From an uncultured Acidobacteriota bacterium (lineage in GTDB: Bacteria > Acidobacteriota > Thermoanaerobaculia > Multivoradales > JAHEKO01), in NCBI GenBank assembly GCA_963719055.1, contig CAVRAU010000023.1:71790-135789 (forward strand): a stretch of 64,000 nt of DNA, read 5' to 3'. A model generated the notes under the pieces. It searched no databases, was not told the DNA's origin, and was given only the letters and a program-made list of their open reading frames with translations. Position numbers and translations under genes: made by a program. Within the stretch, counting starts at the first letter, position 1; each line of letters begins with the position of its first letter. Below, piece after piece: positions 26,573 through 59,165 of this stretch.

Positions 26573-27854
26573 TCACCAGATGTAGTCGCGGGCGATGTCG
26601 CGTTTGTCCTTGCCGGCCAGGATGTGCATGACGCGGATCTTCTTGAGGGTCACGGGAGACAGCGCCGCCAGGGGGATGTGGGTGATCTGCTTGCCCTGGA
26701 CGGCGGCATAGCGGCGCATGCGATCCGCAGGAGGATCGGCGGCGACGTGGACGACAATCTTCTCCAGGCTGTAGTCGATGGCCGCCATCAGCAGGACCTC
26801 GGCCTTGTCCTGGGCGAACCGATAGTCTCGGTCCTCCCAGACATCAAACAGTCGCCCTCGTGGAAGTGTCAGCATGAATCCGCCATAGGTAGCGCGCATG
26901 ATTCCCGGACCGACGACCTGCTCGGCCGGGCTGGTGGCGTAGAAGGCCATATCCGATTCCTGATCGTGCTCTCCCAGCCAGGTCATCGAAAAGGGGAACT
27001 GCAGCGTTCTCTGGATCCCGGTCGAAGATCACGACCACAGAGCCGGCCTCTCCAGGAGCCCTACCCTTCTCTTCCACGAAAATCCGTTCCTCGTGTAGAT
27101 GGCGGAGGGTCTCGCGAATATCGATGCCGTCCAGCATGCTGGTGGAAAAGGGCTCCGTTCTCTTGCGCTCCGCGGCGAGGATCGACACCGCCCGGTGCTG
27201 CAGAAAACGGCCGTAGTCCTCGATCACGAGATCCTCGGGCGGATAGGAACACAGACCGGTGGAATCGAAAGCGCTCAGCCAGTCCTCTGGGCTGCTGGGC
27301 TGTGGTCGCTCGCGCACCGGCACGGCGATGGGTCGACTCTTGACCCTGAGAAACCGGCGACGAAACCGCACCTTGCGAGTCCCCAGATCGAGCTCGGAGC
27401 CGTCGATGGAGACACTGGGAATCTCCGCCGACTCCTCCTGCCACGGATACGCCCGCGACGCATCGAAGACCTCCCAGGCCAGATTGTCGTCACCCACACC
27501 GCGGGCGGCGATGACCCATTCGTAGAGGCCCGGCACCAGCATCCCCTGTACCCGCGCGCATCGCCGGGCGTAGTCGAGAAACAGCCGCTGCTGCCACGGT
27601 CCGGTGTCTTCACCAGTCTGCTCCTTGTAGGAGCCCGCCCCGACCTTCCACACCACCGTCCCGAGAGCGCGCCGATCAGGAAAACCCTTGCAGCCGGCCA
27701 ATTCCCCCAGAGCTTGATGACAGGCGAAGTCCACGATCCGCCCCTTTCGCTGGTTTTCGCTCTCTCCCTTCTCTCCATGAATCACCCGCAGACCAAAACG
27801 GACCACCGAGACCTTGCGTGACAGCGCGGCAGTCAACTCGGCCGACTCCGGCAT
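26573..27854 (-). CDS. Hypothetical protein of about 427 aa, last gene of the eight-gene operon. Apparent frameshift near 26900-26990.
   Basis: Start ATG immediately after the stop of 27856..28593 (TGAGATG). Protein-like sequence across ORFs 26844..27902 and 26573..26986. No recognisable family. Confidence 0.5.
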
Positions 27855-27855
27855 C

Positions 27856-28593
27856 TCACCGCCTGCGGACACGCTCCCAGACGGCGTGCGCGAGTGGCGC
27901 ATCCGGGAGCAATCCCGTCAGGCTGTGGGGATCCAAATGCCGAATCTCCGTGTGAGACCTTCTGACGCGAGCCAACGGGTGGGCTTGAGGCTGCTGGAGA
28001 CTCGCGACCACCCCATCGACATGGGCCGCCCCGACGAGGGCCAGAATCTCCCCGTCGGGCATCTCGTCCCGGGCCTGGGCGAGATGAAAGGCCATACCTC
28101 TCTCCCGTCGAGCGTCCTCATCGGTGGCGGGAGAGCTGCGATACCGCTCCCGCAGCAGATCCAGATACCGACCGCCGCCCAGGCTCCACACCGAGTAGGG
28201 ATCCGGCACCGGATCGCGGTGCTGCTCCGCGTACGGCAGATCGGGATCGATGAACAGAATCGGCCGTTGCTGTTCCAAGGCCCATCGGGCAGCTTCCACG
28301 AGAGGGTCTCCCGGCGCCACCACCCAGACGAGAGCGTCTTCTCCAGGCTCCTCAGAGATCAAGAGCGAGATTCTCGGTAGACGCCGAACCGCTCGCAGGG
28401 TCTCGCTCTCCAGAGTCGTCGGCAACTCGAGGGCGAGCGCCGCGGGATCGACCTGGTTCAATGCGGCCCGCACCAGGGCCGTGATCTCGAGGCGCTCGTG
28501 AACGATCGGCAGGACCCGAATGCCCGGGCACGCCGACGGCGCCAGACGGTCCAGGTCTCGAGGATCAGGTGAGATCGAAATCGGTGAATTCAT
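27856..28593 (-). CDS. Putative Tiki/TraB/GumN-superfamily metallohydrolase-like protein
   Basis: N-terminal PIVHERLE...LALELP and C-terminal ILALVGAAHVDGVV match the paired His-containing motifs of the TraB/GumN/Tiki superfamily. Assignment by motif only. Overlaps the upstream AAA gene by 28 nt. Confidence 0.5.
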   Translation of the reverse strand: MNSPISISPDPRDLDRLAPSACPGIRVLPIVHERLEITALVRAALNQVDPAALALELPTTLESETLRAVRRLPRISLLISEEPGEDALVWVVAPGDPLVEAARWALEQQRPILFIDPDLPYAEQHRDPVPDPYSVWSLGGGRYLDLLRERYRSSPATDEDARRERGMAFHLAQARDEMPDGEILALVGAAHVDGVVASLQQPQAHPLARVRRSHTEIRHLDPHSLTGLLPDAPLAHAVWERVRRR

Positions 28594-29401
28594 CGTCGCT
28601 CAAGGACAGGCGCATGGCCCGCTCCACCGCTTCGCCGGCATTCTCCGCTTCACCTCGCCGCAAGACCTTCATCGCGTAGCGAACCAGATTGATGCCATCC
28701 CGCACGGTGTAGCGAAGATCCCGATCATGAGCCACACGAAGAAAGGACAGCACGTAGTCCAATACTTCTTGTTCGGCGAAAGGTACCTGCGCCTGCAGAA
28801 TCGAACGCTCTTCGTCTTCTTCGGGGAAATCGACATAGATCTGCGGCATGAGACGCGAGTGGATGTACTCGGGGATCTCGTAGGTGGAGGCGTCTTCGTT
28901 CATCGTGGTGACAAAGCGAAAGTCGGGATGGGCCGAGATGCGGATTCCGGCCACGATGCTCTCCACGTAGCGACGATGGTCCAGAAGGGGTGCCAACGAC
29001 GCCCACGACTTCTCGCTCATCCGGTTGCCTTCATCCAGAATCAGGGCACCGCCACGAATCATGGCGGTGACCAGGGACGACGCCATATAGCGCACGCCTC
29101 CGTCTGGGGACAGCACCGGCGAGACGACGAGATCCTCTGGCCGCGTGTCCATGGTCGCCTGGGCCATGTAGATGTCCAAATCGAGCTCGCGGGCTGCCGC
29201 ACAGGCGAGAGTGGTTTTGCCCACCCCAGGTTTGCCCAGCAGGCGTGGATTGAGCGGTAGGTCCGCATCCTCGATCCTGGCCCACGCAGCCAACAATTGG
29301 ATCAGAACTTCCCGCTGGCCGATCCAAGGGGGCGTCTCCTTGACCGGCGTGCCCAGATGAAGAGTCACCCCGTCGATGACAACGGTGTCTTGTGCACTCA
29401 T
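28565..29401 (-). CDS. AAA+ ATPase, AAA_5 / MoxR-CbbQ-like
   Basis: Walker A LLGKPGVGKTTLA and Walker B GALILDEGNRMSEK. About 278 aa. Confidence 0.75.
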   Translation of the reverse strand: MSAQDTVVIDGVTLHLGTPVKETPPWIGQREVLIQLLAAWARIEDADLPLNPRLLGKPGVGKTTLACAAARELDLDIYMAQATMDTRPEDLVVSPVLSPDGGVRYMASSLVTAMIRGGALILDEGNRMSEKSWASLAPLLDHRRYVESIVAGIRISAHPDFRFVTTMNEDASTYEIPEYIHSRLMPQIYVDFPEEDEERSILQAQVPFAEQEVLDYVLSFLRVAHDRDLRYTVRDGINLVRYAMKVLRRGEAENAGEAVERAMRLSLSDDEFTDFDLT

Positions 29402-29429: not shown

Positions 29430-30044
29430 CTACAGCGGGATCTCGAAGATGACATCCTTGGCCCGCTTGCCATGACGGACAAAGGGGATCCCCAGGAGCC
29501 TCTCGGGGCCAAACACGATTTCATATCGGAGCTGTTTCAGGGTATCGGGCTTGCTCACCTCGGAGGCAACCAGGCAGTAGTGCGCCAGTTTCTGCGCGTC
29601 AGCCACACCGTAGCAGCCGCCCACCAAGCGCTCTCCCAGCTTCTCCCCCAAGCTCGGCAAGACCTCGGTGTATCGTCGGGCCAGCTCCGTCACCGCCTGC
29701 AGGGGCGCGTGGAAGGCCGGAATGGCGAAGGTCCCTTCTCCACCGGGCTCGTCCTCCTCGCCACCCAGAAAGAACCGCATCAGACCCTTGAACGATTTCC
29801 CGGCGGCGGTGCGTTCAGTGATCGTCACGGTCGCCGGAAGCAACCAGAACGGCAAATAGAAATCGACATTCTTGTCGGACAGGGCCACGAAGGCCACCTC
29901 GACGGGCTCCAGGCTGTGGGTTTCCTGCTCGAACCGATAGCCATTGCGGCAGGCCGTGCAGTAGTAGACGACATCCTGGCCATCGGCTCGGATTCCCGCA
30001 CCGCAGCTTGGGCAGTCCAGGGGCACCAGAGAGAATTCACCCAT
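29430..30044 (-). CDS. Zinc-ribbon protein X3, the soluble member of the paralog family X1-X3
   Basis: CPSCG...x16...CTACRNGY zinc ribbon. Shared DFYLPFWLLP motif. ATG overlaps the stop of X2 (TGATG). Confidence 0.6.
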   Translation of the reverse strand: MGEFSLVPLDCPSCGAGIRADGQDVVYYCTACRNGYRFEQETHSLEPVEVAFVALSDKNVDFYLPFWLLPATVTITERTAAGKSFKGLMRFFLGGEEDEPGGEGTFAIPAFHAPLQAVTELARRYTEVLPSLGEKLGERLVGGCYGVADAQKLAHYCLVASEVSKPDTLKQLRYEIVFGPERLLGIPFVRHGKRAKDVIFEIPL

Positions 30045-31126
30045 CACGACCACGACCCCCATCGCGGAGATCGACCCTGCATGAGATCGCCCACCATCTC
30101 GCCGAGATCATCCTTCATCTCGAACCCGGCAAGAAGCTGGGGACCCGAATCCTCGTGTCCGACACCGGTGCCTTCGACCACCACACCGCCGTGTCGGAAT
30201 TTCTTCCATCCCCACCACAACGCACCCAGGACCACGGCTCCCATGGCTGCCAGCCCCCCCAGATTGACACCGATGAAACGCACGATCGTGGTCGCGATGA
30301 AGAGCGCTGCCGCCTGGGACAGCACCATCGCCAGAGCCCGGTACAGGTCGTTGCCCGGCGCCTTGCCGTAGACCAGGCTGCCGTCCTCGGCATCGACGAG
30401 AATCTGATACGACCGGTTCTCGAAGCGATAGCGGATGATCCAGAGCGGATAGTAGATCAAGCTGAAGCGTTCCCGTAGAGTCTCGAGAAACTTGAACCGG
30501 ACCTGCGTGAGACCACGGCCGGGATCGGCGCTGGAGACGATCTGTCGACGGGCCGCGTCCTTGACTTCGGCTTCGGATCCCGTGGGGGGAAAGACCATAC
30601 CGAGCCGCTTGAGACCTTCCGGATCGAAGGGAACCAGGGGATCGTCTTGCAGATCGATCTTCTGGACACCCCACTCGGCCACATCCAGAGCTGGATAGGT
30701 GTGATCGTAGCTCTTCTCCACCGAGCGCTCGACGTCGACCTCGTAGGTCTGCGTTCGTCGGTGCTTGCCCGAGCCGACGGTCCGCCGCCGCGTCTCGGTG
30801 CCCAGAGCAAACCCCATGGCATCTGCTTGCATGCGAAAGAAGGGTAGAAATGCCAGTAGGGCCTCACCCTGCACCGCGTCACGGCGCAGCCGCCGGTCGC
30901 GACTCCAGCCTGTGGACAACCAACGCCGAGCGACCTCTTTCGCCCTTGACGCGTCCAACTTCGGAGCTACCGACCATCGGCGGATGCCGACTTCGCTGAC
31001 CGCCAGAAGAGGGGTTTCGCAGTATGGACAATCGACAACTCGCAACCCGGCGACGACATCCAAAGCCCCACCGCAGCTCGGACAGGTCAGACCCTGAACG
31101 CTCGACTCCCGGGGCTCCACAGTCAT
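30044..31126 (-). CDS. Zinc-ribbon membrane protein X2
   Basis: N-terminal CPSCGG...CPYCETP zinc ribbon, EVARRWLSTGW, LAFLPFFRMQ, C-terminal SLIYYPLWIIRYRFENRSYQILVDAEDGSLVYGKAPGN followed by two hydrophobic helices. 360 aa. Confidence 0.62.
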   Translation of the reverse strand: MTVEPRESSVQGLTCPSCGGALDVVAGLRVVDCPYCETPLLAVSEVGIRRWSVAPKLDASRAKEVARRWLSTGWSRDRRLRRDAVQGEALLAFLPFFRMQADAMGFALGTETRRRTVGSGKHRRTQTYEVDVERSVEKSYDHTYPALDVAEWGVQKIDLQDDPLVPFDPEGLKRLGMVFPPTGSEAEVKDAARRQIVSSADPGRGLTQVRFKFLETLRERFSLIYYPLWIIRYRFENRSYQILVDAEDGSLVYGKAPGNDLYRALAMVLSQAAALFIATTIVRFIGVNLGGLAAMGAVVLGALWWGWKKFRHGGVVVEGTGVGHEDSGPQLLAGFEMKDDLGEMVGDLMQGRSPRWGSWS

Positions 31127-31887
31127 ACTTTTCGTGCCACCCAGTAGGCCAGCAGGTGAGTGGAATCGCGGTGATGGCGTAGGCCACGAACTTGGCGAAG
31201 AGATTGCCGATCACCAGACCCTCGATCCCAAAGAGGATCAAACCGAGCACCGCGACCAGGACAAAGGGACTCTCGGCCTTCTCCGGGTAGACACTCGCCA
31301 ACACCTGGCCTGTCGAGGCATCGACCGCCGCATGAAAGGTCTTGCCCTCGAATGTGTAGCGACACTTCCAGAAGGGCACCCTCACCAGTGCGGTCTCGTG
31401 GATTTCTCCAACCTGCCGTTGCTCCAGCCAACCCACGGCCGTCTCCAGGGGTACCTGGACGTCGATGACCTGCATGTCGTCCTCTTCAGGCCGATAGGGT
31501 TCCAGACGACCCGCAGGGATCGACAGCTCCGTCACCTGGGGAATCGGAGTCGGTGCCGCGGGCTCGAAGAACACCCGTCTCCGCTCCGGATTCGGAGGTG
31601 CGAAACAACCAGACAGGGAAGGAGACGGCCTCGAGACCCTCGATGTGCGGCCTTGCGATCCAGATCCTTGACGGTGTCGTTCCCCGCCATCCAGCGCCGC
31701 AGTGCCGCGGTCGCCTCCTCCTCGGCCAGCAGAGGAGGCAGTCGGTAGTGGAAGACGACCTGGGCTCGATCGACAAACAGGGTGGTGTCGCAGAAGACAC
31801 AGGTCACGAACCGGTGACCCGTGGGCACCTCGTTCTTGCCCCCACACTGGGAACAGAGAACGGAGGAACCGCTCTCCTCCGGACGAC
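31115..31887 (-). CDS. Zinc-ribbon membrane protein X1 (paralog of X2/X3). At least two frameshifts at about 31590-31650. The 3' end is uncertain (possibly about 31120, or as far as 30879).
   Basis: Probable GTG start 20 nt after the SPFH stop. CSQCGG...CVFCDT zinc ribbon, ATAALRRWMAG, VSFPVWLFR (in a third frame), LVRVPFWKCRYTFEGKTFHAAVDASTGQVLASVYPEKA, then a TM helix FVLVAVLGLILFGIEGLVIGNLFAKFVAYAI. Confidence 0.45.
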
Positions 31888-31903
31888 TGGAGTCCACCTC
31901 GAA

Positions 31904-32961
31904 CCCCGTCTGTCTAGCCGCCCACCTTCGTACCGCAGGCAGGGCAGAATTTCGCCGCTTCCGGCAGCTTGCCACCACACTGATGACAGAACGCCGCACC
32001 AGCAGCGGCGGCCGCCGCACGGCAGCAGCGGCGCCACTACCGGAGTCCTGCGCCGGAGGAGCAGCTGGCGATTCGCCGCCACCGCCCGCCGGCGCCGGCT
32101 GACCGCCCTGGTCCTGCATGGCTTCCTTCATCATCTGCGGCAGCATCATCCCCATGCCGGCCCCCATGCCCACTCCCAGACCGGCCCCGACACCACCGCC
32201 GGTCTCGCCACCGGTGTTTTGTGCCGCATCGCCCATGGCCTTGGCGGCCTTGAACTTCATGTAGGCGTTCATATCGCCTACGGCAGCCATGCCAGCGCGC
32301 TCGTCGATGAGCTTCTGGACCTCGTTCGGCGGCGTGATGGCGCCCAGATACATATCCACCAGCTCGATACCGTACTTGCTGAAGTCGTCGGCAACCCTGG
32401 ACTTGAGCGCCATTCCCAACTCATCGTAGACCTTGGGCAAGTCGAAAATCGACTGCAGATTCTCGCCCAAGTACGTCGGTCAGACGAGCCACGATCACAT
32501 CTTTGTAGTACGACTCCACACCATCGGTGGTGTACACATCGTTGGTCCCGACAATCGTGTTGACGAACAGCTGGGAATTCGTGATGCGGACCGCGAACTT
32601 GCCGAAGGCCCGCAGACGGACCATCGCCAGCTCGCTGTCTCGATACGCCACCGGCTCCTTGGTTCCCCATTTGAGATCCAGAAAGGTCTTGGTGGAGACG
32701 AAGACAACAGCTGCCTGGAACGGCGACTTGCCCTCGAAGGGGATACCTAGCAGCTTGGTCAGGAAAGGCAGGTTCTGTGTTGCCAGGGTATGGCGTCCCG
32801 GGCCGAAGGTGTCGAGGGCCTTGCCATCCCGAAAAAAGACCGCCTGCTGGCTCTCTTCGACGACCAACTGACTGCCTAGTCTTGATGGCCGCGGTCCCCT
32901 GCCGCGGCACCCGGGCCACCATGGTCTGACCCGTGGGGTCGACGTATTGAATCACTTTCAT
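31904..32961 (-). CDS. SPFH/band-7 (flotillin-like) protein with C-terminal zinc ribbon. Three apparent frameshifts (about 32870, about 32450, about 32015).
   Basis: AAGGAG RBS 7 nt before ATG (MKVIQYVDPTGQTMVARVP...). SPFH core VVEESQQAVFFRDGKALDTFGPGRHTLATQNLPFL...VRLRAFGKFAVRI, then Gly/Met-rich linker. By hand translation, a zinc ribbon AFCHQCGGKLPEAAKFCPACGTKVGG-stop sits in a fourth frame. Pieces lie in ORFs 32278..33060, 32421..32867 and 31532..32470. Confidence 0.68.
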
Positions 32962-32992: not shown

Positions 32993-33520
32993 TCAACGGG
33001 AGGTCTTGACGATGTTGTTGATGATGGTTCCGCGTCCGGACCACCGCTCTTCCAGGTCACTCAGCTTCTGCAGTGCGGCTTCGACACCCGCCTCCGGATC
33101 ACCCTGTCCCGGGGTCGGAATGGCTGACAGCGAACCCGTCAGATCCTCGATCTCTCCGAGCAGCGACAGATCGAATTCATAGACCTTCTCCAACTCCACT
33201 TCGCCGATCTTCTCGACGTCGAAGAATCCCGTCACTCCATAGTCGCTGAACCGAATCGCCTGCGACAAGCCATCGAGCCGGCGATCGAGACGATCGAACA
33301 GGTGCAGAGAGCCGATCTGCGCGGCATCGGTGTAGGCTCGAGCTCGATCCCTCACGACCCCCTTGAGGTCGGCGATCGACCCCGCCAGATATTCCCGCTG
33401 CATCTTGTCGACTTCCCGCCGTAGCTCCCGGTCTTGAAAGCCACGAAATCCGGGAATCTTCTCTCCCAGGCGCTCCAGCCAGTTGCGTTGCGCCTTGGCT
33501 TCGTCAAATCCATTGGTCAT
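32993..33520 (-). CDS. Hypothetical helical protein (175 aa), first gene of the operon
   Basis: GGAGAA RBS before ATG. Charged helical sequence. Lower-GC putative promoter region upstream (33521-33613). No family recognised. Confidence 0.5.
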   Translation of the reverse strand: MTNGFDEAKAQRNWLERLGEKIPGFRGFQDRELRREVDKMQREYLAGSIADLKGVVRDRARAYTDAAQIGSLHLFDRLDRRLDGLSQAIRFSDYGVTGFFDVEKIGEVELEKVYEFDLSLLGEIEDLTGSLSAIPTPGQGDPEAGVEAALQKLSDLEERWSGRGTIINNIVKTSR

Positions 33521-33613: not shown

Positions 33614-34189
33614 CTATTCACGCTGCCTCGCCCAATCCATCAGCTTGACGGAGGCCACGCTGATCAGGGCGGCGACGGCGTTGAAGGTCACATCCCGAAC
33701 ATCGTAGACCCGATTGGGCAAGATGGCCTGGATCCCTTCGTCGAGCCAGCCGATGATGCCGGTACTAACGACAGCGGTCGCAAACGGCTGTAGGCGAGCG
33801 ACTCGATCCCCGACATCGATGCCGGTTTCGACCAGCCTGGCTCGGCGCTCGCAGAGAGCCAGATAGATCAGGGCCGCTACCACCCCATACTCCAGAAAAT
33901 GCAGCCGTTCCTCCGGCATCATGGGAATCGCCGTCAGCAGTGCGAGATAGCCCGCCCCGATGACACCTGTGGTGACCAAGGCCCGCCACCCCGCACGGAT
34001 CGCGAAAAGACGCCAGGTAACCAGACTCCCTGCCGCGAGAAAAGACAGCGCCACCGCCAGACGGAGAAGATTCCGTTCCCGGAGCAGCTCCGCTGCGGGC
34101 CGCGCGATGTAGAGAGACGAGTAGATCAACAACGTGCAGAGGCCGGCCGCGAACCAGAGGCGTTTCTCACGCCTGGAAGCAAAGACCAT
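33614..34189 (-). CDS. VanZ-like membrane protein
   Basis: Four hydrophobic helices and a VanZ-like WLDEGIQAILPNRVYDVRDVTFNAVAALI segment. Directly downstream of ftsZ. Confidence 0.6.
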   Translation of the reverse strand: MVFASRREKRLWFAAGLCTLLIYSSLYIARPAAELLRERNLLRLAVALSFLAAGSLVTWRLFAIRAGWRALVTTGVIGAGYLALLTAIPMMPEERLHFLEYGVVAALIYLALCERRARLVETGIDVGDRVARLQPFATAVVSTGIIGWLDEGIQAILPNRVYDVRDVTFNAVAALISVASVKLMDWARQRE

Positions 34190-34247
34190 CTGGCCAGCGA
34201 CCGACCCCTGCGGAGCACGGAAGAAGGAGGTTTACGCGCAATCGGCT

Positions 34248-35522
34248 CTAGTCCATCTGCTTGCGAAGCACCGTGGGGATATCGAAATCGTCCACGTTTG
34301 ACCAGTTTGGACCGTAACCGTTCGGATCATCGTTCTGAGCTTGAGCGATGACCTTGCGATAGAAGGGAATGTCCTCCCCCTCCTCTTCCGCCATCACAGC
34401 TGGCTCGGGCAGCGGCTCGTCGTAGACCGGCCCGCTTTCAGCCTCGAAAGACTGCTGGACGGGGCGCGCTGGCAGACGGGCCCCGGTTTGCTCGCCGCCA
34501 AATCCGGTGGCGATGACCGTCACCTTCATGTTCTCGTCCATGTCCTCGCGCACGACCAGACCCGAGATGATGTTGGCTGTCGGATCGACCGCCTCGGCGA
34601 TGACCCGCGCCGCCTCGTCCACCTCGTGCAGGCTGAGATCCATGCCGCCGGAGATATTCAGCAGCACTCCCTTCGCACCCTCGATGGAGGTCTCCTCCAA
34701 CAAGGGCGACGAGATCGCTCGCTGGGCGGCCTCGAGGGCCCGATTCTCGCCCTTGGCGATGCCCGTTCCCATCAGCGCCATGCCCATGCCGGTCATGATC
34801 GTTTTGACATCGGCGAAATCCACATTCACCTCGCCCGGAACCGTGATCAGATCGCTGATGCCCTGCACGGCCTGCCGCAGAACGTCGTCGGCGATCCGAA
34901 AGGCCTCGGTCAGCGGCGTACCCCGTTCGACAAAGCTGAGAAGGCGCTCGTTGGGAATGGTGATGAGGGTATCTACCGCCTCCCGCAACTCCTCGACACC
35001 GCGCTCCGCCAGTTCCTGACGCCGGCGTCCTTCGAAAGAGAAGGGCTTGGTGACGACGGCCACCGTCAAGGCTCCCAGCTCAGAAGCCAGGGAGGCAAAG
35101 ATGGGCAGAGCACCCGTCCCGGTGCCGCCTCCGAGTCCAGCCGTCAGAAATACCATGTCGGCGCCGTCGAGAAGCTCGAGAATGCGCTCGGTATCCTCCA
35201 GAGCCGACTTGCGACCGATCTCCGGATCGCCTCCGGCTCCCAGTCCCCGGGTCAGGGAGGAACCGAGTTGCACCTTGACCGGCGCCCGGCCACCTCGCAA
35301 GGCCTGCAGATCGGTGTTGCCGGCAATGAACTCGATGCCTCTCATCTTGCAGTCGATCATCCGGTTGACGGCGTTGCCACCGCCACCGCCAACCCCTACC
35401 ACTTTGATTCTCGCGGGGACGCTCTCGGCCTCTTCGATGGTAATGGACAGGCCGGGCTCCATCTCCTGGTCGTCGAATAAGATCATTTCGCTGTTCTCCT
35501 TCCGTGCTCCGTTGACGCTCAT
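34248..35522 (-). CDS. ftsZ: Cell division GTPase FtsZ
   Basis: Tubulin signature [15 protein letters not shown] plus NTDLQAL and [11 protein letters not shown]. Start could be the internal ATG at about 35489. Confidence 0.93.
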
Positions 35523-36769
35523 AAAAGATCAGAAAACATGCCGCGGATGCTGGTCATCATGCCGCGCATGGTGAATCCGGTTGTTCCCACTCGCCGCATA
35601 CGGTCGGCAGAGGCCTGGGCATACTGCAGCAGCCCTGAGGCGGCGGACCAGGTCGGGCAACTGATCACATCCACCAAGCCACCCAGTCCCTGGGGCAGTC
35701 CGTAGCGAACCGTACAATTGAAGATCTGCTCGGTCATCTCGAGCAGACCGTCCAGTTGGGCCCCTCCTCCCGTCAGAATGAGGCCACCACGCAGCGTCTC
35801 GTCCGCACCGTTCTTGATCAAGTCTTCACGGACGAGAGTGAGAATCTCTTCGGCTCGGGGTTGCAGGATGCCGCAAAGCTCGCGCTTGGGAACCACCCTG
35901 GCGAGGCCGCCGGCCACTGTGGGAACCGAGATGCCCTCTTCTTCGCTCACCAGCCCTTCGAGGCAACAGCCGTGGCGCGTTTTGATGTTCTCGGCCTCGG
36001 CGAAGGGAGTGCGCAGAACCATGGCCAGGTCGTTGGTGAAGTGTCCGGCTCCGATCGGCAGCACAGCGCTATGCTGAACCTCGCCTTCCGAATAGTTGGC
36101 GTATTCGGTCGTACCGCAGCCGATATCCACGAGCAGCGCGCCGAGCTCGCGCTCGTCATGCGTGAGCACCGCCTCGGCCGTGGCCAAGGGCTCGAAGACC
36201 AGCTCGGCGACCTCGATGCCGGCGCGGTTGACGCAGGTCATCAGGGTCTTGCGCCGCGTGATGTTGCCGGTCACCAGATGGACGGCCACCTCGAGACGGC
36301 TGCCGAGCATTCCCAGAGGATCGTTGATGCCACCCTGCTCATCGACGATGAACTCCTGGGGAATGGCGTGGATGATCTCCCGGTCCGACGGCAACGCCGC
36401 CGACTGGGCGGCCTCCAGAACTCTGGCGATATCCTGTTGGGTGATCTCCCGATCCTGGTCCTTTCTGGCCACGGAAACCATGCCGCGAGAGTTGATACTC
36501 CGCACATCGGTTCCGGCAACGCCGACAAACGCCCTGGAGACTTCGATGCCGGCCATCACCTCCGCTTCCTCTGAAGCTTGCTTCAGGGCTTCCATCGTCG
36601 ATTCCACGTTGACGATGTTGCCTTTCCGGGTTCCTCGGTTAGGGGCCTGACCCTTGCCCACCACCTCGAGCTCGCCCTGGTCGTCTCGTTGACCGATCAG
36701 AACGCCGATCTTCGAGGATCCGATATCGATGGCTACCAAGTACGGGTCCACTTTCGGCATCAACCTCAC
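35519..36769 (-). CDS. ftsA: Cell division protein FtsA
   Basis: Actin-like ATPase: [26 protein letters not shown]. 416 aa. Confidence 0.9.
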
Positions 36770-37573
36770 CCCTCCTGACTGCGCGGATCGCCCGCGGGTT
36801 GGATAACTATCTGACGAGAGAATCGAAGATCCACTGCCTCGACCGAGGCGAATCGCCGGGAGATCTCTGGCAGCAGTGCAACGAGCTTGTCGATTTGTTC
36901 TGCCACGTCCCCAGCACTGACAAGGATCGGAAAATCCAGACCTGCGGTGTAGATTCGATAGTCACCCAGGCCCATCACCTCGATTTCCGAGAGCCCCCGG
37001 CTGATCTCGGGAGCCAGTCGCTCCAGACTGGCTGCCATCTCCAGAGCCGGCGCCACCTCCAGAGCTGCCCCAGGTGCCACACTCAGAAGAACGAGATCGA
37101 CTGGACCCTCGAGATCGTAGGCGCCAATGACGAAGCCATCGCCGTCGACATAGAAGAGCTCACCGTCGCTGACGCAACAGCGCTACCGGCAATCGTTCCT
37201 CGATCTGCACTACCAATCCGTCTGGAAGCTCTTTGCGAATCGCTGCGCTCTTGACCCAGGGATTCCCGGTCAGCCTGCCCTCGACGTCCTCCAGAGAAAG
37301 GCTCAGAAGATGCCGACCACGCAATGGCGTCAGAGCCGCTGCGACCTCCTCGGTGGATATGTGGACCGTGGTGCCGATTTTCACCTGCTGGAGAAGAAAT
37401 CTCGGAGAGGTATAGATCCACAGGGCGGCCGCCAACGGCAGTCCAACCACAAGTACGGCCAGGAGAAAGGGCTTCAGCAGCATCAGAGTCCGGCTGCGCC
37501 GGCGGTGCGGCACGACGAATCGACGACGGCGGAAGGCACTCGAACGCTCGATGGTGAGTCGCTGCGTCGTCAT
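36766..37573 (-). CDS. ftsQ: Cell division protein FtsQ. Single frameshift at about 37165.
   Basis: TM helix plus POTRA domain in ORF 37160..37573. By hand translation, ...IEERLPVALLRQRR ends at a TGA while the -1 frame continues SDGELFYVDGDGFVIGAYDLEG... into ORF 36766..37080. Confidence 0.75.
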
Positions 37574-38961
37574 GCTGCGCCCTCCGCAGCCAGATCCTCG
37601 GCCAGCCGGTAGATGTCGCCCGCTCCCAGGGTCAACACCACATCCCCTTCGCCGACTTCGTCGACCAGCATCTCGCGAGCCTGATGCCAGTCGGCGCAGA
37701 GTTCCACGTGCCGATGCCCACTTCGACGCGCCGCATCCACCACCAACATCGAGTCGACCTCAGCGATCGGTTGCTCCCGCGACGGGTAGATGTCGGTCAC
37801 CAGCACAAAGTTGGCACCCAGTAGCGCCTTGCCGAACTCGCCGGCCAGATCGCGAGTGCGGGAGAACAGATGCGGCTGGAAGACCGCCACGATGCGAGCT
37901 TGGGGGAACGCCTGGCGAGCCGCCTCGAGGGTGGCCGCCACTTCCGTCGGATGGTGGGCATAGTCATCCACCACCAGTGCACCGCGCCAGGTTCCCCGAT
38001 GCTCGAAGCGCCGGTGGACCCCTGAGAAGCCCGCCAAGGCTCCGGCGATGGTCTGGAACTCGATCCCCAGGGACAGCCCCACCGCAATGGCAGCCAGGGA
38101 ATTGCGCACGTTGTGGTCACCATGCATGGGTAGCACCACGTCTCCCAGGTCGCCTTGCCCGTTGTTGCGCACCGTAAATCGGGAACCTTCTGAGGTGGGC
38201 TCCGGATCGATGGCTCTGAGATTGGCTTGTGGCGACAGGCCGTAGGTCACGACTCGACGCCCGGCGAGCCGCGGCAACATCTCCTGGATGTTGGGGTCGT
38301 CCAAACAGAGAATCGCCTGGCCAAAGAAAGGAACCTTGCTAGTGAACTCCAGAAAGGCCTTCTTGATGGCGCCGAGGTTGCCGTAGGTATCCAGATGATC
38401 CTGATCGATGGAGGTGACCACGCCGATGATGGGCTGCAGCCGCAGGAAGCTGCGATCGTATTCGTCAGCCTCGGCCACCAGATACTCGCTTTTGCCAAGA
38501 CGGGCCCCGGTTCCCGATACGCGCAAGCGCCCGCCGACGATGACGGTGGGATCGAGTCCCGCTTCCGTCAGCACCGCCCCGACGAGCGAGGTCGTGGTGG
38601 TCTTGCCATGGGTCCCCGCAACGGCGACCCCGTACTTGAGCCGCATCAACTCGCCCAGCATCTCCGCCCGCCGCACGATGGTGATATTCCGCTTCTCCGC
38701 TGCCTGGATCTCGGGGTTGTCTTGCGAGACGGCCGAAGAGATCACCACCAGATCCACATCCTCCAAGTGATCCTCCGAATGACCCACATGAACCGTCGCT
38801 CCCAGTTTCGCGAGTCGATCGGTGGTCTCGCTGGCAACCATGTCGCAGCCGCTGACCTCCAGGTCGTAGTCCAGCAGCACCTCCGCGATACCGCTCATAC
38901 CGGCACCACCGATACCGACAAAATGAACCTTGGAGAGATTGGCGAACTGGCGAAACATCAT
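37570..38961 (-). CDS. murC: UDP-N-acetylmuramate--L-alanine ligase
   Basis: VHFVGIGGAGMSGIAEVL and GTHGKTTTTSLV motifs. 463 aa. Confidence 0.9.
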   Translation of the reverse strand: MMFRQFANLSKVHFVGIGGAGMSGIAEVLLDYDLEVSGCDMVASETTDRLAKLGATVHVGHSEDHLEDVDLVVISSAVSQDNPEIQAAEKRNITIVRRAEMLGELMRLKYGVAVAGTHGKTTTTSLVGAVLTEAGLDPTVIVGGRLRVSGTGARLGKSEYLVAEADEYDRSFLRLQPIIGVVTSIDQDHLDTYGNLGAIKKAFLEFTSKVPFFGQAILCLDDPNIQEMLPRLAGRRVVTYGLSPQANLRAIDPEPTSEGSRFTVRNNGQGDLGDVVLPMHGDHNVRNSLAAIAVGLSLGIEFQTIAGALAGFSGVHRRFEHRGTWRGALVVDDYAHHPTEVAATLEAARQAFPQARIVAVFQPHLFSRTRDLAGEFGKALLGANFVLVTDIYPSREQPIAEVDSMLVVDAARRSGHRHVELCADWHQAREMLVDEVGEGDVVLTLGAGDIYRLAEDLAAEGAA

Positions 38962-40040
38962 TCGGCTCCCGCCACCTCGGCCAGAAGATCTGCGATATCG
39001 GCCGCCGCCTCGCGGCGGTAGAGCGACCGGCTGGCGTTCCCCATCTGCGTCAGGCCTTCGCGACTGGCAAGCAGCTCACCCACGACAGCAGCCACCTCTG
39101 GTGCTGTTGTCTGGCCGGAGAACATCCTGGCGCCACCCGTTGAGACCATGCGCCGAGCGTTGGCTACCTGGTGAGAACCGGCCAATCCCAACGGCAACAG
39201 CAGCGCGGCACGGCCGACCGCGCAGATCTCGGCCAGGGTGATCGCCCCGCCGCGAGAGATCACCAGGTGCGCGGCGCTCATCGCCCCGGCCATGTCTTTC
39301 AAAAACGGCACGATCCGGACATCCAGATCTGCAAGTGTGGGCTCTGCATAGGCCCGCTGCGCCTCTTCGACATGAGCCTCTCCCACCTGATGCGTCACCT
39401 CGAGATCGGGGTAGGCGGGAGCGATTTCGGCCAACGCCTCGGGCAGCAGCTCATTCAACTGTCTCGCTCCTTGGCTCCCCCCCAAAATCAGAATCCGCAG
39501 GGGACCCGTCTGGGCCGGGGGTTCGAAGGGGCCTTGGAATTCGCTCCGCACCGGGACACCGATCGCCTCGACACGGCATTTGAGATCTCGAGCTTCCTCC
39601 AGGCTGACAACCGCGGCGGCCGTTGCCCATCGGGACAACCATCGATTGGCGGTGCCGGTTGTCGCGTTGGGCTCCAAGAGGACCGCCGGCCGGCCCGCCA
39701 GCCTGGCGCCGAGCACCCCTGGAGCCGAGGCGTAGCCGCCCGTTCCCAGAACCACCTCGATACCCTGCCGGCGGATCAAGCTCCTCGCCTGCACCGCCGA
39801 GAGTGCCGTCCGACCCAGGGCCAAGACCCGCTGGGGCAACCCGCGGCCCACTACCGCCGCGGCCGGCAAGCCGTAGTAGGGCATCCCGTGATCTGTCACC
39901 AAGCTCTTCTCCATGCCCCGGACTCGTCCCAACCAACTCACCTGGCAATCCCTTTCCGCCAGCTCGCGCACCACGGCCAGCGCGGGGAAAACGTGTCCCC
40001 CGCTACCGCCCCCTGCCACCAGCACATGCCCGAGACCCAT
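38958..40040 (-). CDS. murG: Undecaprenyldiphospho-muramoylpentapeptide beta-N-acetylglucosaminyltransferase
   Basis: VLVAGGGSGGHVFPALAV N-terminus. 360 aa. Confidence 0.9.
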   Translation of the reverse strand: MGLGHVLVAGGGSGGHVFPALAVVRELAERDCQVSWLGRVRGMEKSLVTDHGMPYYGLPAAAVVGRGLPQRVLALGRTALSAVQARSLIRRQGIEVVLGTGGYASAPGVLGARLAGRPAVLLEPNATTGTANRWLSRWATAAAVVSLEEARDLKCRVEAIGVPVRSEFQGPFEPPAQTGPLRILILGGSQGARQLNELLPEALAEIAPAYPDLEVTHQVGEAHVEEAQRAYAEPTLADLDVRIVPFLKDMAGAMSAAHLVISRGGAITLAEICAVGRAALLLPLGLAGSHQVANARRMVSTGGARMFSGQTTAPEVAAVVGELLASREGLTQMGNASRSLYRREAAADIADLLAEVAGAE

Positions 40041-40074
40041 ACACTCCTAACCATTCGAAATTTTCGACTCGCTC

Positions 40075-41157
40075 TCATCCGTGTTGCGAGATATTCAACA
40101 AGACTCCACATGCCGCCAAGCTCACCACCAGCGACGAGCCGCCGTAGGAGAGGAACGGCAATGGAATTCCCTTTGTCGGCATGAGAGCCAGGGCGACGCT
40201 CATATGAATCAGCGCCTGGAGGACCAAAACCCCCGTCAGCCCCCATGCCAGATAGCGACCAAACACATCGGGTGCCCGCCAACCGGTGCGCAGACCCCGC
40301 CAAGTAAAGACACCGAAAAGACCCAATACCCCTACCCCGCCGACCAGCCCCAATTCCTCGCCCACAATGGAATAGACGAAGTCGGAATGGGGGTGGGGCA
40401 GAAAATAGAGCTTTTGCAAGCTCTCCCCCAGACCCCGTCCCAGGACGCCTCCCGAGCCGATGGCGATCAGGGATTGACGTGCCTGATAGCCGGAGCGCAG
40501 AGGCTCGAGATCGGGATCGAGAAACGACATCAATCGCTGCCGGCGATAGGGCACCGAATAGATCAGAAACCACAGAGCGGGCAACAGGGCGACAAAGGCT
40601 CCAGCGAAGTACCGCCACTCGACTCCGGCGAGAAAGAGCATGAGAATCGTGGTGCCACAGATCAAAACCGCGGTGCCGAGATCGGGTTGCAGGAGGATCA
40701 AGGCCGCCACCACACCCAACAGCAGGCCACAGGGAAGGATCAGATCGCGTGTCTCTCGATGCTCCTTCGATTGGATCTGATAGGCCACAAAGGCCACCAC
40801 CGCGAGCTTTGCCAGCTCCGATGGCTGGATCGAGACACCCCCGAGAAATAGCCAGCGACGGGTATTGTTGAGCTCTGGCGCAAAGAGAACCGCGACCAAC
40901 AAGACCAACACTCCACCCACCAGGGCGTACAACACCCGAGGCCGAAACAGGTGTCGGTAGTCGATGTGCATGGCCACCCACATCACCACCAGACCCAGAA
41001 GCGCCGCCAGCCCCTGTTTGACCAGGTACAGATTGAAACGATGCGACTGATCCCGCGCGAACGCGGCGCTGGCCGAGAAGACCGCGGTCAGACCTATGGC
41101 CACCAGAATCAGAATGGTGGTGAAGAGAACCTTGTCGAAGGCCAGTTTCTTAGCCAT
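40075..41157 (-). CDS. ftsW: Peptidoglycan glycosyltransferase FtsW (SEDS family)
   Basis: Polytopic SEDS-family membrane protein in the conserved dcw position. 360 aa. Confidence 0.85.
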   Translation of the reverse strand: MAKKLAFDKVLFTTILILVAIGLTAVFSASAAFARDQSHRFNLYLVKQGLAALLGLVVMWVAMHIDYRHLFRPRVLYALVGGVLVLLVAVLFAPELNNTRRWLFLGGVSIQPSELAKLAVVAFVAYQIQSKEHRETRDLILPCGLLLGVVAALILLQPDLGTAVLICGTTILMLFLAGVEWRYFAGAFVALLPALWFLIYSVPYRRQRLMSFLDPDLEPLRSGYQARQSLIAIGSGGVLGRGLGESLQKLYFLPHPHSDFVYSIVGEELGLVGGVGVLGLFGVFTWRGLRTGWRAPDVFGRYLAWGLTGVLVLQALIHMSVALALMPTKGIPLPFLSYGGSSLVVSLAACGVLLNISQHG

Positions 41158-42511
41158 TCAGGTTCCTCACCAGGTCTTGGAAGTGACGCCCACGTTCGGC
41201 AAAGTTTCGATATTGGTCGAAGCTGGCACAGGCAGGCGACAACAGCACTGTCTCACCCCGCTCGACCCCGCGTTGTGCGGAGTCCACCGCCGACTGTAGG
41301 GTGCCGGCCATCACGACCTCGACCACACCCCCCAGCACCGGCTCGATCTCGGCCGCCGCTTCGCCGACCAGATAGATTCGTCGAACCTTGCGGGCGACGA
41401 CCTCCGCCAACTCGGCCGGGTCACCGCCCTTGTTGCGACCCCCGAGAATCAGATGCACCGAGCCACTATCGAAGCCGTCCAGCGATCTTGCGGTGGCAGC
41501 GAAATTCGTCGCCTTGGAGTCGTCGTACCAGGCCACACCGCGTCGTTCGAGAACCAATTCCAGTCGATGGGGCAGGCCGCGAAATCGCGCCAGGGCTTCG
41601 GGAATCACCTCGGGATCCGCACCGACCGCCAGCGAGAGAAGGGCCGCGGCCATGGCGTTCTCGAGGTTGTGCGGACCCGGCAGAGACACATCGGTGCGCT
41701 TGAACAGGGGCTGCCGACCGCTTTCGGGGTCCACTTCCACGACAATGTCGCCATCCAGATAGCAGCCGTCCTGCACCGCGGCCCGGCTGGAAAAGAACCG
41801 GCGCCGGGCCTCGACCGCGACATTCGACACGGCCTCGTCGTCGGCGTTCAGCACGGCTATATCGCTCGGATGCTGATTTCTGAACAGGTTCTTCTTGGCG
41901 GCAAAGTAGCTCTTGGCATCTCCATGCCAATCGAGATGATCCGCGGAGAGATTGAGCAGCGCCGCCGCCCGGGGATGAAAGGTGTCCACCGAGTCCAGCT
42001 GGAAGCTCGAGAGCTCGGTGACAAACGTGCGCCGCGGTGCGCCGTCGATTCTGGAGCTCAGGGGGACACCGATATTGCCGCAGATTTCCACGGCCATACC
42101 GTTGGCTTTGAGAAGCTCTCCGGTCATCAGTGTCGTGGTGCTCTTGCCGTTGCTGCCGGTGATGCCAATGACGTCTCCATCCAGAAACGGGTACGCCAAC
42201 TCCACCTCGGCCACGAGCGGCAGACCCGCCCGGCGAGCCGCAAGCACGAGCGGTCTGTCCGGTGGCACCCCTGGACTCAGCACCACGCCATCGATCCCCG
42301 GCGGCAACTCCTCGAGTTCCTCGCCCAGGATCCACTCGACGCCGGTGTCCTCTCCAAGATCGCTCAAATCGAGCTGCTCCGCGGCTTTTCTATCGATAGC
42401 CAACACTTCAACCCCTCGCGACCTCAGGAAACGGGTCGCGGCCATTCCTGAGGCCCCCAGGCCGTAGACGACCACCCGTTTCCACTCCGACTGTGTCCAT
42501 GGAACCTTCAT
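41150..42511 (-). CDS. murD: UDP-N-acetylmuramoylalanine--D-glutamate ligase
   Basis: VVVYGLGASGMAATRFL Rossmann N-terminus and Mur ligase motif ITGSNGKSTTT. Confidence 0.9.
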   Translation of the reverse strand: MKVPWTQSEWKRVVVYGLGASGMAATRFLRSRGVEVLAIDRKAAEQLDLSDLGEDTGVEWILGEELEELPPGIDGVVLSPGVPPDRPLVLAARRAGLPLVAEVELAYPFLDGDVIGITGSNGKSTTTLMTGELLKANGMAVEICGNIGVPLSSRIDGAPRRTFVTELSSFQLDSVDTFHPRAAALLNLSADHLDWHGDAKSYFAAKKNLFRNQHPSDIAVLNADDEAVSNVAVEARRRFFSSRAAVQDGCYLDGDIVVEVDPESGRQPLFKRTDVSLPGPHNLENAMAAALLSLAVGADPEVIPEALARFRGLPHRLELVLERRGVAWYDDSKATNFAATARSLDGFDSGSVHLILGGRNKGGDPAELAEVVARKVRRIYLVGEAAAEIEPVLGGVVEVVMAGTLQSAVDSAQRGVERGETVLLSPACASFDQYRNFAERGRHFQDLVRNLNG

Positions 42512-43596
42512 CTCAGTTTCAGAGTCCCCAGACCCATGAGGGCGAACATGATGGACAGAATCCAGAAACGCACGATGATCTTCGGCTCGGCCCAGCCGCT
42601 GAGCTCGAAATGGTGATGCAGCGGCGCCATGCGAAACACTCGCTTGCCGCCCGTCGCCTTGAAGAACCCCACCTGGATGATCACCGACATTGCCTCGATG
42701 ACGAACAGCCCGCCGACCAACAAGAGAACGACTTCCTGCTTGGAGAGGATGGCCACCATGCCGATCGCCCCGCCGATGGCCAACGAGCCCACATCCCCCA
42801 TGAAGACCTCTGCCGGGTGGGAGTTGAACCAGAGAAATCCGAGACTGGCCCCCACCAGGGCGCCGCAGAATACCGAGACCTCACCCACGCCACGCACATA
42901 GGGCACTTGAAGGTATCCGGCCACAACCGAGTTTCCTGCCACGTACGTAAAGATGGCGTAGGTCGCGGCCGCGACGAGCGTGGCGCCGATGGCCAACCCA
43001 TCGAGACCGTCGGTCAGGTTGACCGCATGGGAAGAGCCCACCAAGACCACGGCCAGGAACGGCACGTAGAGCACTCCGAGCGACACCACAGCCCGCTTGA
43101 AGAACGGAAAGGCGACGGTGGGCTCGAACGAGTAGCCGTTGGGCAAGGAAAGGAGGATGATCCCTGCCGCAACGGCCACTACGATCGAGAGCAGCATTTT
43201 GGTCCGGGCGCTGAGGCCCAGATTCTGGTGTCGCCGGACCTTCAGATAGTCATCGGCGAAGCCGATGGCTCCGAAGCTGGCGGTGATGCCCACGGCCAAC
43301 CAGACGTAAGGGTTGAGGAGGTCCGCCCACAGGAGCGTCGGCACAATGACCGAGAACAGGATGAGCAGGCCACCCATCGTCGGTGTGCCAGCCTTGACCT
43401 GGTGACGGTCCGGGCCGACATCGCGGATGTTCTGGCCAATCGACAGCCGCCTGAGCATACGGATAAACGCCGGACCGAGAAGAAGAGACAGCAGCAGGGC
43501 TGTCACCACGGCACTGGCTGCCCGAAATGTGATGTAGCGGAAGACATTGAAGGCAGCGATCTGGTCGCTCAGCGAATAGAGGAGGTGATACAGCAT
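42508..43596 (-). CDS. mraY: Phospho-N-acetylmuramoyl-pentapeptide transferase
   Basis: KAGTPTMGG and DDYLKV motifs. 362 aa polytopic. Confidence 0.92.
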   Translation of the reverse strand: MLYHLLYSLSDQIAAFNVFRYITFRAASAVVTALLLSLLLGPAFIRMLRRLSIGQNIRDVGPDRHQVKAGTPTMGGLLILFSVIVPTLLWADLLNPYVWLAVGITASFGAIGFADDYLKVRRHQNLGLSARTKMLLSIVVAVAAGIILLSLPNGYSFEPTVAFPFFKRAVVSLGVLYVPFLAVVLVGSSHAVNLTDGLDGLAIGATLVAAATYAIFTYVAGNSVVAGYLQVPYVRGVGEVSVFCGALVGASLGFLWFNSHPAEVFMGDVGSLAIGGAIGMVAILSKQEVVLLLVGGLFVIEAMSVIIQVGFFKATGGKRVFRMAPLHHHFELSGWAEPKIIVRFWILSIMFALMGLGTLKLR

Positions 43597-44945: not shown

Positions 44946-44958
44946 GATGGCTGCCGCC

Positions 44959-48402: not shown

Positions 48403-48728
48403 GGTGTGTCCTCGACAAACACCATGCGATCCAGATCCGCCTCCACCAGCCCGAGTTTCCGGTGGGCTTCCTCACGGATCCGCTCAGGGCTCGAAAGGTA
48501 AGCAGCCTCTACCCAGAGCTCTCGTTCTCTCCGTTCTTCGAGTTTCAGGGTCCGCTCCAGGCGATCGACCTCGTAGCCGATGTGCACCAGGCGCAGATTG
48601 AGCCAGACATAACCGAGCATGCCGCCGGCAACCGGTACCAGAGCCAGAAACACCGCCGCCAGCTCACGGCGGCGACGGCGATCTCGCTGCCGTACCAGAA
48701 AGCTGTTGTCGACTTGTCGTTTGACGAC
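48399..48728 (-). CDS. ftsL: Cell division protein FtsL-like
   Basis: Small bitopic protein with a coiled-coil after a TM helix (AAVFLALVPVAGGMLGYVWL), positioned between rsmH and ftsI. Start uncertain. Confidence 0.55.
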   Translation of the reverse strand, partial: VVKRQVDNSFLVRQRDRRRRRELAAVFLALVPVAGGMLGYVWLNLRLVHIGYEVDRLERTLKLEERRERELWVEAAYLSSPERIREEAHRKLGLVEADLDRMVFVEDTP

Positions 48729-48747
48729 ATACTCACCGCGCAAAGAC

Positions 48748-49671: not shown

Positions 49672-49725
49672 GTCCGCCGAATCAATGAACTGCTGTCGAG
49701 CGTTCAGAGTCCGAGTTCCTCAGAC

Positions 49726-59087: not shown

Positions 59088-59165
<78 letters not shown>

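Follow-up and report, generated by a model that had tools for sequence, protein, structure and literature searches.

Tandem YdjG/SamG-like zinc-ribbon genes next to a YdjI-type SPFH gene in an Acidobacteriota contig

A stretch of 64,000 nucleotides (64 kb) of contig CAVRAU010000023.1 (assembly GCA_963719055.1, positions 71,790 to 135,789), belonging to an uncultured Acidobacteriota bacterium of the Thermoanaerobaculia, was analysed, and this whole stretch is referred to as the window. Three adjoining zinc-ribbon genes on its minus strand, named X1, X2 and X3, were the subject of the analysis. Profile comparisons identified X1 and X2 as divergent, remote members of the superfamily of the Bacillus subtilis protein YdjG/SamG; X3 is not demonstrably a member of it. 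The gene immediately upstream of X1 codes for an SPFH protein of the YdjI/SamI type, and X1 and X2, perhaps together with X3, probably form a cytoplasm-facing, membrane-anchored platform which recruits or regulates this SPFH protein. X1 encodes 257 amino acids (aa) at 31123..31897 with a GTG start at 31897, X2 is an intact gene for 360 aa at 30044..31126, and X3 encodes a soluble protein of 204 aa (30044-29430), or of 210 aa when read from the ATG at 30062. An earlier note, made from the nucleotide sequence alone, had described three co-directional genes on the minus strand; this placement and the coordinates of X2 (31126-30044) were confirmed, and X1 was relocated from 31887-31115 to 31897-31123.

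The ydjG locus was taken from genomes of the B. subtilis group by means of a published primer sequence, and the profile of the X2 superfamily was built without YdjG. The comparison with YdjG gave a match probability (Prob) of 96-97.5 % for the X1 profile (E 4e-9 to 5e-12), 84 % for the X2 profile (E 8e-6) and 99.1 % for the X2-superfamily profile (E 5.2e-19 over 258 columns). The same superfamily profile, with the ribbons deleted on both sides, still matched at Prob 97.5 % (E 8.9e-12 over 214 columns) and the X1 profile without ribbons at Prob 90 % (E 1.4e-6), the reversed-sequence controls giving 0.2-0.6 %. The core of X3 reached Prob 8 % against YdjG, too little for homology to be assigned. 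Single-sequence searches were in accordance with the profiles of X1 and X2: YdjG alone, used in phmmer, scored 27-37 bits against dozens of X1 and X2 orthologues, and tblastn of YdjG on the window matched X2. The sequence identity between YdjG and X1/X2 is only ~20 %.

The motifs of the proteins also correspond. FRKW of YdjG aligns with RRW, YIPFWMF with LPFF/FPVW, and LLPVWMVSYDY...NGQTGKV with YYPLWIIRYRF...DAEDGSL. The common plan consists of an N-terminal ribbon of four cysteines (C4), an RxW helix, an I/L-P-F-W hairpin, a second L-P-V/L-W hairpin followed by xDxxxGxv, and a C-terminal membrane anchor, and in both cases the gene adjoins a Band_7_1 SPFH gene whose product has a C-terminal ribbon and no transmembrane segment. 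The traits of the YdjG superfamily, namely the C4 ribbon, the homologous core, the C-terminal anchor (with predicted topology) and the SPFH linkage, were all found in X1 and X2.

X1 and X2 are, by sequence, clear paralogs, aligned by blastp over their full length (E 4e-10) and by hhalign with Prob 99 % (E 6.7e-18, or E 4.5e-39 with more diverse profiles). For X3, the ribbon alone aligned with X1 and X2 in blastp and in hhalign of the close-family profiles, and default hhalign against a diverse profile of 65 members covered 37 ribbon columns at Prob 90 %. A greedy alignment (mact 0.1, diverse profiles) produced a full-length colinear match of X3 to the X2 superfamily with Prob 96.7 % (E 3.3e-10), and to X1 with Prob 95 % (E 2.5e-8). 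The control with an unrelated ribbon, that of the SPFH C-terminus, already reached E 1.5e-5, and X3 without ribbons gave Prob 31 % against the X2 superfamily in a different register and 2 % against X1, so the similarity signal of X3 comes mostly from its ribbon. X3 shares the ribbon and a similar layout with X1 and X2, and common ancestry of its core with theirs is plausible but unproven. Of the tandem triplication claimed in the earlier note, the paralogy of X1 and X2 is thus borne out; the pairwise similarity after frameshift correction is significant for these two, and for X3 over the ribbon only.

The conservation of motifs was read from family alignments of 38-39 orthologues per family, which contained all the CxxC...CxxC ribbons, RRW and proline-aromatic motifs that had been noticed before, each in conserved form. 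The four ribbon cysteines are invariant in X1, X2 and X3 (ribbons at ~31855-31790, 31084-31019 and 30014-29949, respectively) and in the 65 diverse members, YdjG included. The RRW motif is conserved as R68-W69-M70 in X1 and as W69-L70 in X2 (RRW at 30928-30920). The first proline-aromatic strand is conserved as F93-P94-x-W96 in X1, P95-F96 in X2 (LPFF at 30847-30836) and P65-F66-W67 in X3 (LPFW hairpin at 29855-29844); the spacing of 30-40 residues after the ribbon, earlier given for all three proteins, applies to X3 only, the strand lying ~58 residues after the last cysteine in X1 and X2. A second copy of the motif, also proposed earlier, is conserved as P174-x-W176...Y180 in X1 and as Y225-Y226-P227-x-W229...R232-Y233...D245 in X2 (YYPLW at 30454-30440). 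When the superfamily profile was matched with itself, the N-terminal unit (46-150) aligned with the C-terminal unit (176-262) at Prob 90.8 % (E 1.2e-6), far above the reversed control (6 %), and the strand-helix-hairpin unit of the X1/X2 core can therefore be described, at the level of profiles, as truly duplicated within the protein.

The AlphaFold2 (AF2) model of X2, with a predicted local distance difference test score (pLDDT) of 79, shows the ribbon, a strand and the RRW helix, very long beta-hairpins starting from LPFF, a second helix, a second set of hairpins starting from YYPLW, transmembrane helices at residues 260-285 and 289-310, and a short tail strand. The model of X3 (pLDDT 87, predicted template modelling score 0.85) shows the ribbon, the PFW hairpin, helices and a second P-F hairpin, forming an alpha/beta domain. 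The membrane anchors were found as the earlier note had them: X1 and X2 each have two C-terminal hydrophobic helices, forming hairpins at ~31265-31135 and 30349-30197, and X3 has no transmembrane helix, its maximum 19-residue hydropathy being 0.89. X2 further carries many invariant charged residues and a conserved tail, WGWxxFRxGGVVxEGTG, which is predicted to be cytoplasmic.

Zinc ribbons of the C4 type are cytoplasmic modules. Due to this ribbon type, the basic residues flanking the transmembrane helices, the short uncharged loop between them and the lack of a signal peptide, the ribbon, core and tail of X1 and X2 are predicted to be cytoplasmic, with both ends of the anchor inside. A reversed topology, in which the beta-rich domain would be an extracytoplasmic, PepSY/YpeB-like periplasmic or pore-forming module, is extremely improbable. 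The C-terminal xYxF..x6..VDAxxGxv of the proteins presumably resembles the last hairpin of PepSY domains, a likeness that would favour it, and the repeated unit is, as in PepSY, a helix followed by a beta-hairpin ending in a VDAxxG-like turn. The core of YdjG has been called 'related to YpeB' by Ravi et al. (PMC11237479), and the weak top matches of Foldseek include beta-pore-forming toxins. These toxin matches to X2 are not significant (E at least 0.07, template modelling score below 0.13) and were rejected as noise. PepSY gave no match for X1-X3 at E up to 1, and the list of the 25 Pfam families which the 65 members match most often does not include it; PepSY domains are usually extracytoplasmic, whereas the X1/X2 domain is predicted to be cytoplasmic. 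The proteins also have no signal peptide, no N-terminal transmembrane helix and a cytoplasmic type of ribbon, the helices are flanked by basic residues on their cytoplasmic side and separated by a short loop, and natural fusions of X2 with X3, described below, have an even number of transmembrane helices.

The SPFH gene upstream of X1 (31914..32961, minus strand) gave Band_7_1 at E 3.2e-56 together with Zn_Ribbon_1. In its product, which has no transmembrane helix, a low-complexity linker joins the Band_7_1 domain to a zinc ribbon at the C-terminus. An alignment of 344 aa with Bacillus YdjI shows 27 % identity (E 3e-28), and in architecture and sequence the protein is of the YdjI/SamI type. 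This key piece of context had been missed in the earlier note. The gene ends 16 nucleotides (nt) before the start of X1, the stop of X1 and the start of X2 share an ATGA (4-nt overlap), and the stop of X2 overlaps the start of X3 by 1 or 19 nt, depending on the ATG chosen for X3. The SPFH gene is preceded by cc175 (32993..33520, minus strand), which codes for a soluble protein of 175 aa and is the first gene of a conserved cassette. This protein has the invariant motifs RNWxERL, IPGFxGxQ, IRFxDYG and YxFDLSL and a sub-threshold match to the Leptospira family LIMLP_15305 of NCBIfam (E 1.1e-9, 38 bits, cut-off 210). A relationship of cc175 to PspA or TelA was considered and rejected, the Prob being below 1 %.

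The genes of the cassette were located by local hidden Markov models on contigs with distant members of the superfamily, and the order cc175-SPFH-X1-X2(-X3) was found to be conserved in Thermoanaerobaculia-type contigs as well as in distant ones. The gene cc175 adjoins the SPFH gene in the contigs L001, L003, L004, L006, L013, L014 and L016. In L014 the order cc175-SPFH-X1-X2-X3 is followed by a second gene, which is an X2-X3 fusion; L015, an unclassified bacterial metagenome-assembled genome (MAG), has SPFH-X1-X2-X3; L013 has X2 (with a double ribbon)-X3-cc175-SPFH; and L016 has cc175-SPFH, three other genes and X1-X2, lacking X3. L012, from an Anaerolineae MAG (Chloroflexota), carries two tandem copies of X1 plus an X2-X3 fusion. 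In L017 (Pseudorhodobacter turbinis NZ_CP039965.1, 3477-7888), TelA, DUF2927, a Band_7_1 domain fused to GYF_2 and a double-ribbon YdjG-like protein are encoded in a row; the 1.58-Mb record NZ_CP039965.1 carries the label 'plasmid' and probably represents a chromid. L018 (MT838724.1, 4939 bp, low-GC, from human faeces) encodes a Band_7_1 SPFH protein with ribbons and a YdjG-like protein, with a UPF0236-family protein among its large open reading frames. This record was deposited as an unverified 'Bacteriophage sp.'; no phage hallmark was present among the three reading frames scanned, and it may be bacterial.

Altogether, 13 distinct loci were examined, and in 12 of them an SPFH gene stands beside one or more YdjG-like genes. 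This pairing is found again in Bacillota, in Alphaproteobacteria and on several metagenome or MAG contigs without classification. PspA occurs only in the Bacillus locus among the loci whose neighbours were examined. Since 12/13 loci are paired and PspA is confined to one, the results suggest that the SPFH and YdjG-like proteins form the conserved core, to which PspA, TelA and cc175 are interchangeable accessories.

The X2-X3 fusions, of 565-606 aa (L012:1613-3427, L012:5861-7681 and L014:8001-9698), are joined via transmembrane helices and are known from Anaerolineae and other contigs. The fusions P0397, P0418 and P0459 have two or four such helices between their X2 and X3 parts, and P0397 was found in independent assemblies. 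As this number is even, X3 should lie on the same side as the soluble domain of X2, which is predicted to be cytoplasmic.

The homology to YdjG, the YdjI-type neighbour, the coupled gene order, the recurrence across phyla and the X2-X3 fusions together argue for the platform function, which is held to be the probable one. In the proposed mechanism, X1 and X2, each made of a ribbon, a duplicated core and a two-helix hairpin, would be anchored on the inner face of the membrane, and soluble X3 would join them into a hetero-oligomeric platform. The platform would recruit and/or regulate the SPFH protein, which lacks a transmembrane segment of its own and would then oligomerise at the membrane in an envelope-stress or membrane-organisation module, with cc175 taking the accessory or effector position held by PspA in Bacillus or TelA in Pseudorhodobacter. 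The hetero-oligomer or adaptor arrangement considered in the earlier note fits the 4-nt start/stop overlaps, the strict co-occurrence and the X2-X3 fusions. That the proteins interact physically, recruit the SPFH protein and act in the stress response is proposed here by analogy with B. subtilis, in which YdjG/SamG has been studied genetically (PMC8581546; bioRxiv 10.64898/2026.02.06.704340). There, YdjG and YdjH are needed for the membrane localisation of the soluble YdjI and, through YdjI, of PspA, and the two-hybrid network of the four proteins has YdjG binding YdjH, and YdjH binding YdjI and PspA (PMC8581546; bioRxiv 10.64898/2026.02.06.704340).

Several observations weigh against the platform function. 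In B. subtilis it is the TPM-domain protein YdjH, and not YdjG, which is reported to contact YdjI directly (PMC8581546; bioRxiv 10.64898/2026.02.06.704340). No TPM protein (YdjH), PspA or TelA was detected by tblastn, a search of limited sensitivity, in the 64-kb window, so that the PspA and YdjH/SamH components of the pspA-ydjGHI (Sam) operon were not found, and neither the PspA nor the TPM domain of Pfam occurs in the genes of the cassette. Compared with YdjG, X1 and X2 have one ribbon instead of two, double-ribbon forms occurring among distant relatives, and a hairpin of two transmembrane helices instead of a single helix. X3 is linked to the others only by its ribbon, synteny and the fusions. 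No SPFH gene was seen in the stretch of L012 examined, a contig which breaks off 0.8 kb upstream. Confidence in the AF2 model of X2 is only moderate (pLDDT 79), and no structural neighbour supports a fold assignment. In its gene content and order the locus is built differently, with three tandem genes, X1, X2 and soluble X3, in place of the one gene of the YdjG locus, and with the SPFH gene preceding the anchor genes, whereas it follows in the B. subtilis operon.

As to the missing YdjH/SamH, a membrane-platform role towards the SPFH protein may be shared, and X2 or X3 might fill its slot. The proteins are not homologous: YdjH matches the Pfam family TPM_phosphatase, whereas X1-X3 do not. Sequence comparison gave no support for X3 as a counterpart of YdjH (TPM): blastp of X3 against YdjH was not significant, and the idea was rejected. 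The pairing of an SPFH gene with a small membrane-protein partner is established for NfeD operons, and is cited in bioRxiv 10.64898/2026.02.06.704340. The NfeD-type partners (QmcA-YbbJ and the stomatin/NfeD operons) resemble the present case in that the SPFH gene is translationally coupled to a gene for a small membrane protein. They differ in having transmembrane helices with an OB-fold and SPFH partners which carry their own membrane anchor, and NfeD gave no Pfam match for X1-X3 nor was it among the 25 top families of the 65 members.

A somewhat unlikely alternative is that X1 and X2, with or without X3, act as an envelope-stress sensor or signalling complex which is braked by the SPFH protein, according to the SamGH/SamI model, and not as a passive anchor. 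In B. subtilis the loss of SamI leads to SamH-dependent constitutive stress signalling (bioRxiv 10.64898/2026.02.06.704340), the conserved tail and invariant charged residues of X2 suggest more than anchoring, and the diversification of the X1 and X2 paralogs fits a sensor/adaptor specialisation. This is countered by the fact that SamH, the TPM-domain component which drives the Bacillus phenotype, was not found by tblastn in the window. Pfam and NCBIfam scans revealed no output domain or regulator encoded in the cassette, and the periplasmic loops of the transmembrane hairpins are predicted to be only a few residues long, leaving little surface for sensing.

The breadth of the family was assessed by database comparison. 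At least 247 orthologue matches were obtained for X1, 547 for X2 and 321 for X3, the best 120 of each being 54-99 % identical. Among the orthologues listed, all are named hypothetical or generic zinc-ribbon proteins, and where a taxon is given it is a Thermoanaerobaculia/Acidobacteriota MAG. An exhaustive profile search over 1.84 billion cluster representatives (clusters at 50 % identity) gave 1632 matches at E <= 1e-3, 371 at <= 1e-10 and 64 at <= 1e-30. The 149 members retrieved mostly have one or two N-terminal ribbons, ~220 residues and then one or two, occasionally three, predicted transmembrane helices, and their composition spans very GC-rich to AT-rich organisms. The shorter entries lacking ribbon or helices look like fragments. 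One entry of 558 aa (P0387) has, ahead of its X2-like part, an N-terminal stretch of 235 residues with matches to the end of a protein kinase domain and the start of AAA_16; it may be an artefact of gene calling or a true signalling fusion.

The earlier note had called the family undescribed. This holds for the domain databases, X1-X3 having no above-threshold match to any named Pfam domain or NCBIfam family, only sub-threshold zinc-ribbon matches, and no model of the core being present in either; it does not hold for descent, the core being homologous to YdjG/SamG (E 9e-12 without ribbons). The 25 Pfam families matched by most of the 65 diverse members are all of the zinc-finger or zinc-ribbon type, and for YdjG, too, the ribbon is the only part with a Pfam model. 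In the computational description by Ravi et al., YdjG is made up of two zinc ribbons, a YpeB-related, uncharacterised domain with an NTF2-like fold and a transmembrane segment (PMC11237479). When the alignments of X1, X2, X3 and cc175 were searched as profiles against PDB sequences, ribbon proteins and noise were all that came up. Foldseek against the PDB had no match at E <= 0.001, and where the whole X2 model was the query, the result was dominated by the transmembrane hairpin or was non-significant. A PADLOC scan of X1-X3 gave no match to a defence system.

On a further, very improbable reading, the ribbons would bind nucleic acid and the proteins would regulate transcription from a tether in the membrane, or act as anti-sigma-like factors. 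The ribbon of YdjG matches a TFIIB-type Pfam model, a regulatory role was speculated by Popp et al. (PMC9239133), and some members carry the automatic name 'RNA polymerase subunit RPC12/RpoP'. Such names reflect only a generic ribbon, and conservation peaks in the non-ribbon core and the tail near the transmembrane helices. No helix-turn-helix domain, sigma factor in the cassette or zf-HC2 anti-sigma signature was revealed by the Pfam and NCBIfam scans.

The YdjG/SamG superfamily is thus already known and genetically characterised in B. subtilis, with its core missing from the domain databases. New in the present locus are the three tandem ribbon genes, two with a transmembrane hairpin and one soluble and sometimes fused, the different accessory protein, the position behind the cell-division genes described below, and the variant form of the system, in which neither PspA nor YdjH was detected. 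Until now, YdjG/SamG was regarded as a peculiarity that goes with the PspA operon of Bacillus/Firmicutes; the 1632 clusters matched at E <= 1e-3 reveal a widespread core domain. If the duplicated RxW/PFW unit were made into a Pfam-style model, thousands of proteins which at present are called 'hypothetical' or misnamed as ribosomal or RNA-polymerase zinc-ribbon proteins would be annotated, and the X1/X2/X3 triad with its natural X2-X3 fusions gives testable hypotheses on the subunit composition of the platform.

The SPFH gene and X1 are interrupted in the window by single-base insertions and deletions (indels). These were read against L004, a metagenomic contig which shares 97.45 % identity with the window across 5.66 kb and has all genes of the cassette region intact; its intact X1 of 257 aa was used for the family work. 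Compared with L004, X1 has three single-base indels (+1 at 31646, +1 at 31577 and -1 at 31156) and a compensating indel pair at 31472/31470, and the SPFH gene has four inserted bases (32881, 32472, 32019 and 32016). Two further frameshifts lie in a gene for a protein of 672 aa further downstream (~27864 and ~27000). No homopolymer run is present at any of the nine single-base indels (31156-32881 and ~27000-27864, compared with close relatives).

The ratios of synonymous to non-synonymous codon differences between the window and L004 were 44:2 for the SPFH gene, 19:8 for X1 and 23:11 for the intact X2. On these counts the selection on the SPFH gene, X1 and X2 is purifying, and the indels are most simply taken as assembly or sequencing errors. 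Seven of the nine indels lie within 1.8 kb spanning the SPFH gene and X1, the flanking 2.5-kb blocks having none, and the SPFH gene is the most diverged at synonymous sites (46/348 codons, compared with 4/176 in cc175); a mixed-strain or low-coverage stretch of the assembly is suggested as the cause of the cluster. The same confinement, with no indel in cc175, X2, X3, ftsZ or the VanZ-like gene, would also be expected if X1 and the SPFH gene were real pseudogenes in this organism and only X2 and X3 were functional. This is quite improbable, as the codon differences of the SPFH gene are overwhelmingly synonymous and those of X1 are similar to those of intact X2, the X1 orthologues listed are all of full or near-full length, and the frameshifts of the unrelated 672-aa gene fit a generally error-prone assembly.

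Directly upstream of the cassette, and read in the same direction, are a complete division and cell-wall (dcw) cluster and, after it, a VanZ-like gene (window 33614-49700), all of these genes being on the minus strand. The order of the cluster from 5' to 3' is an ftsI-type penicillin-binding protein gene, Mur ligases, mraY, ftsW, murG, murC, ftsA and ftsZ, with ftsZ at 35486-34248 and the VanZ-like gene at 34189-33614. The same position behind the dcw cluster was found in the close relatives L001, L004 and L006, and not in distant lineages. A promoter and terminator scan of the window gave no usable operon boundaries. A wider scheme may tentatively be put forward, as a possibility that falls short of the likely case: SPFH (Band_7_1) plus a YdjG-like protein would be an ancient, multi-phylum and PspA-independent core, expanded in Thermoanaerobaculia and several other lineages to a three-subunit X1-X2-X3 platform on the cytoplasmic face, in which X3 has a fold without a solved relative and cc175 replaces PspA/TelA as effector, and the module, in this lineage appended to the dcw cluster, would link SPFH microdomains to the divisome.

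Downstream of X3, also on the minus strand, are a gene for a MoxR-type AAA_5 ATPase (28565..29401, AAA_5 E 6.7e-16) and the overlapping gene of its 672-aa partner (26576..28593), which has a weak match to DUF5682 (E 1.2e-4, 21 bits, cut-off 26). The AAA_5 gene is adjacent in L001, L005 and L006, lies ~4 kb away in L003 (a complete genome) and is absent from the distant loci. As it is adjacent only in close relatives and displaced in L003, the pair is treated as a neighbour in this lineage which may not belong to the cassette. A tRNA-Met (CAT) at 59088-59164 is the sole RNA family match in the window.

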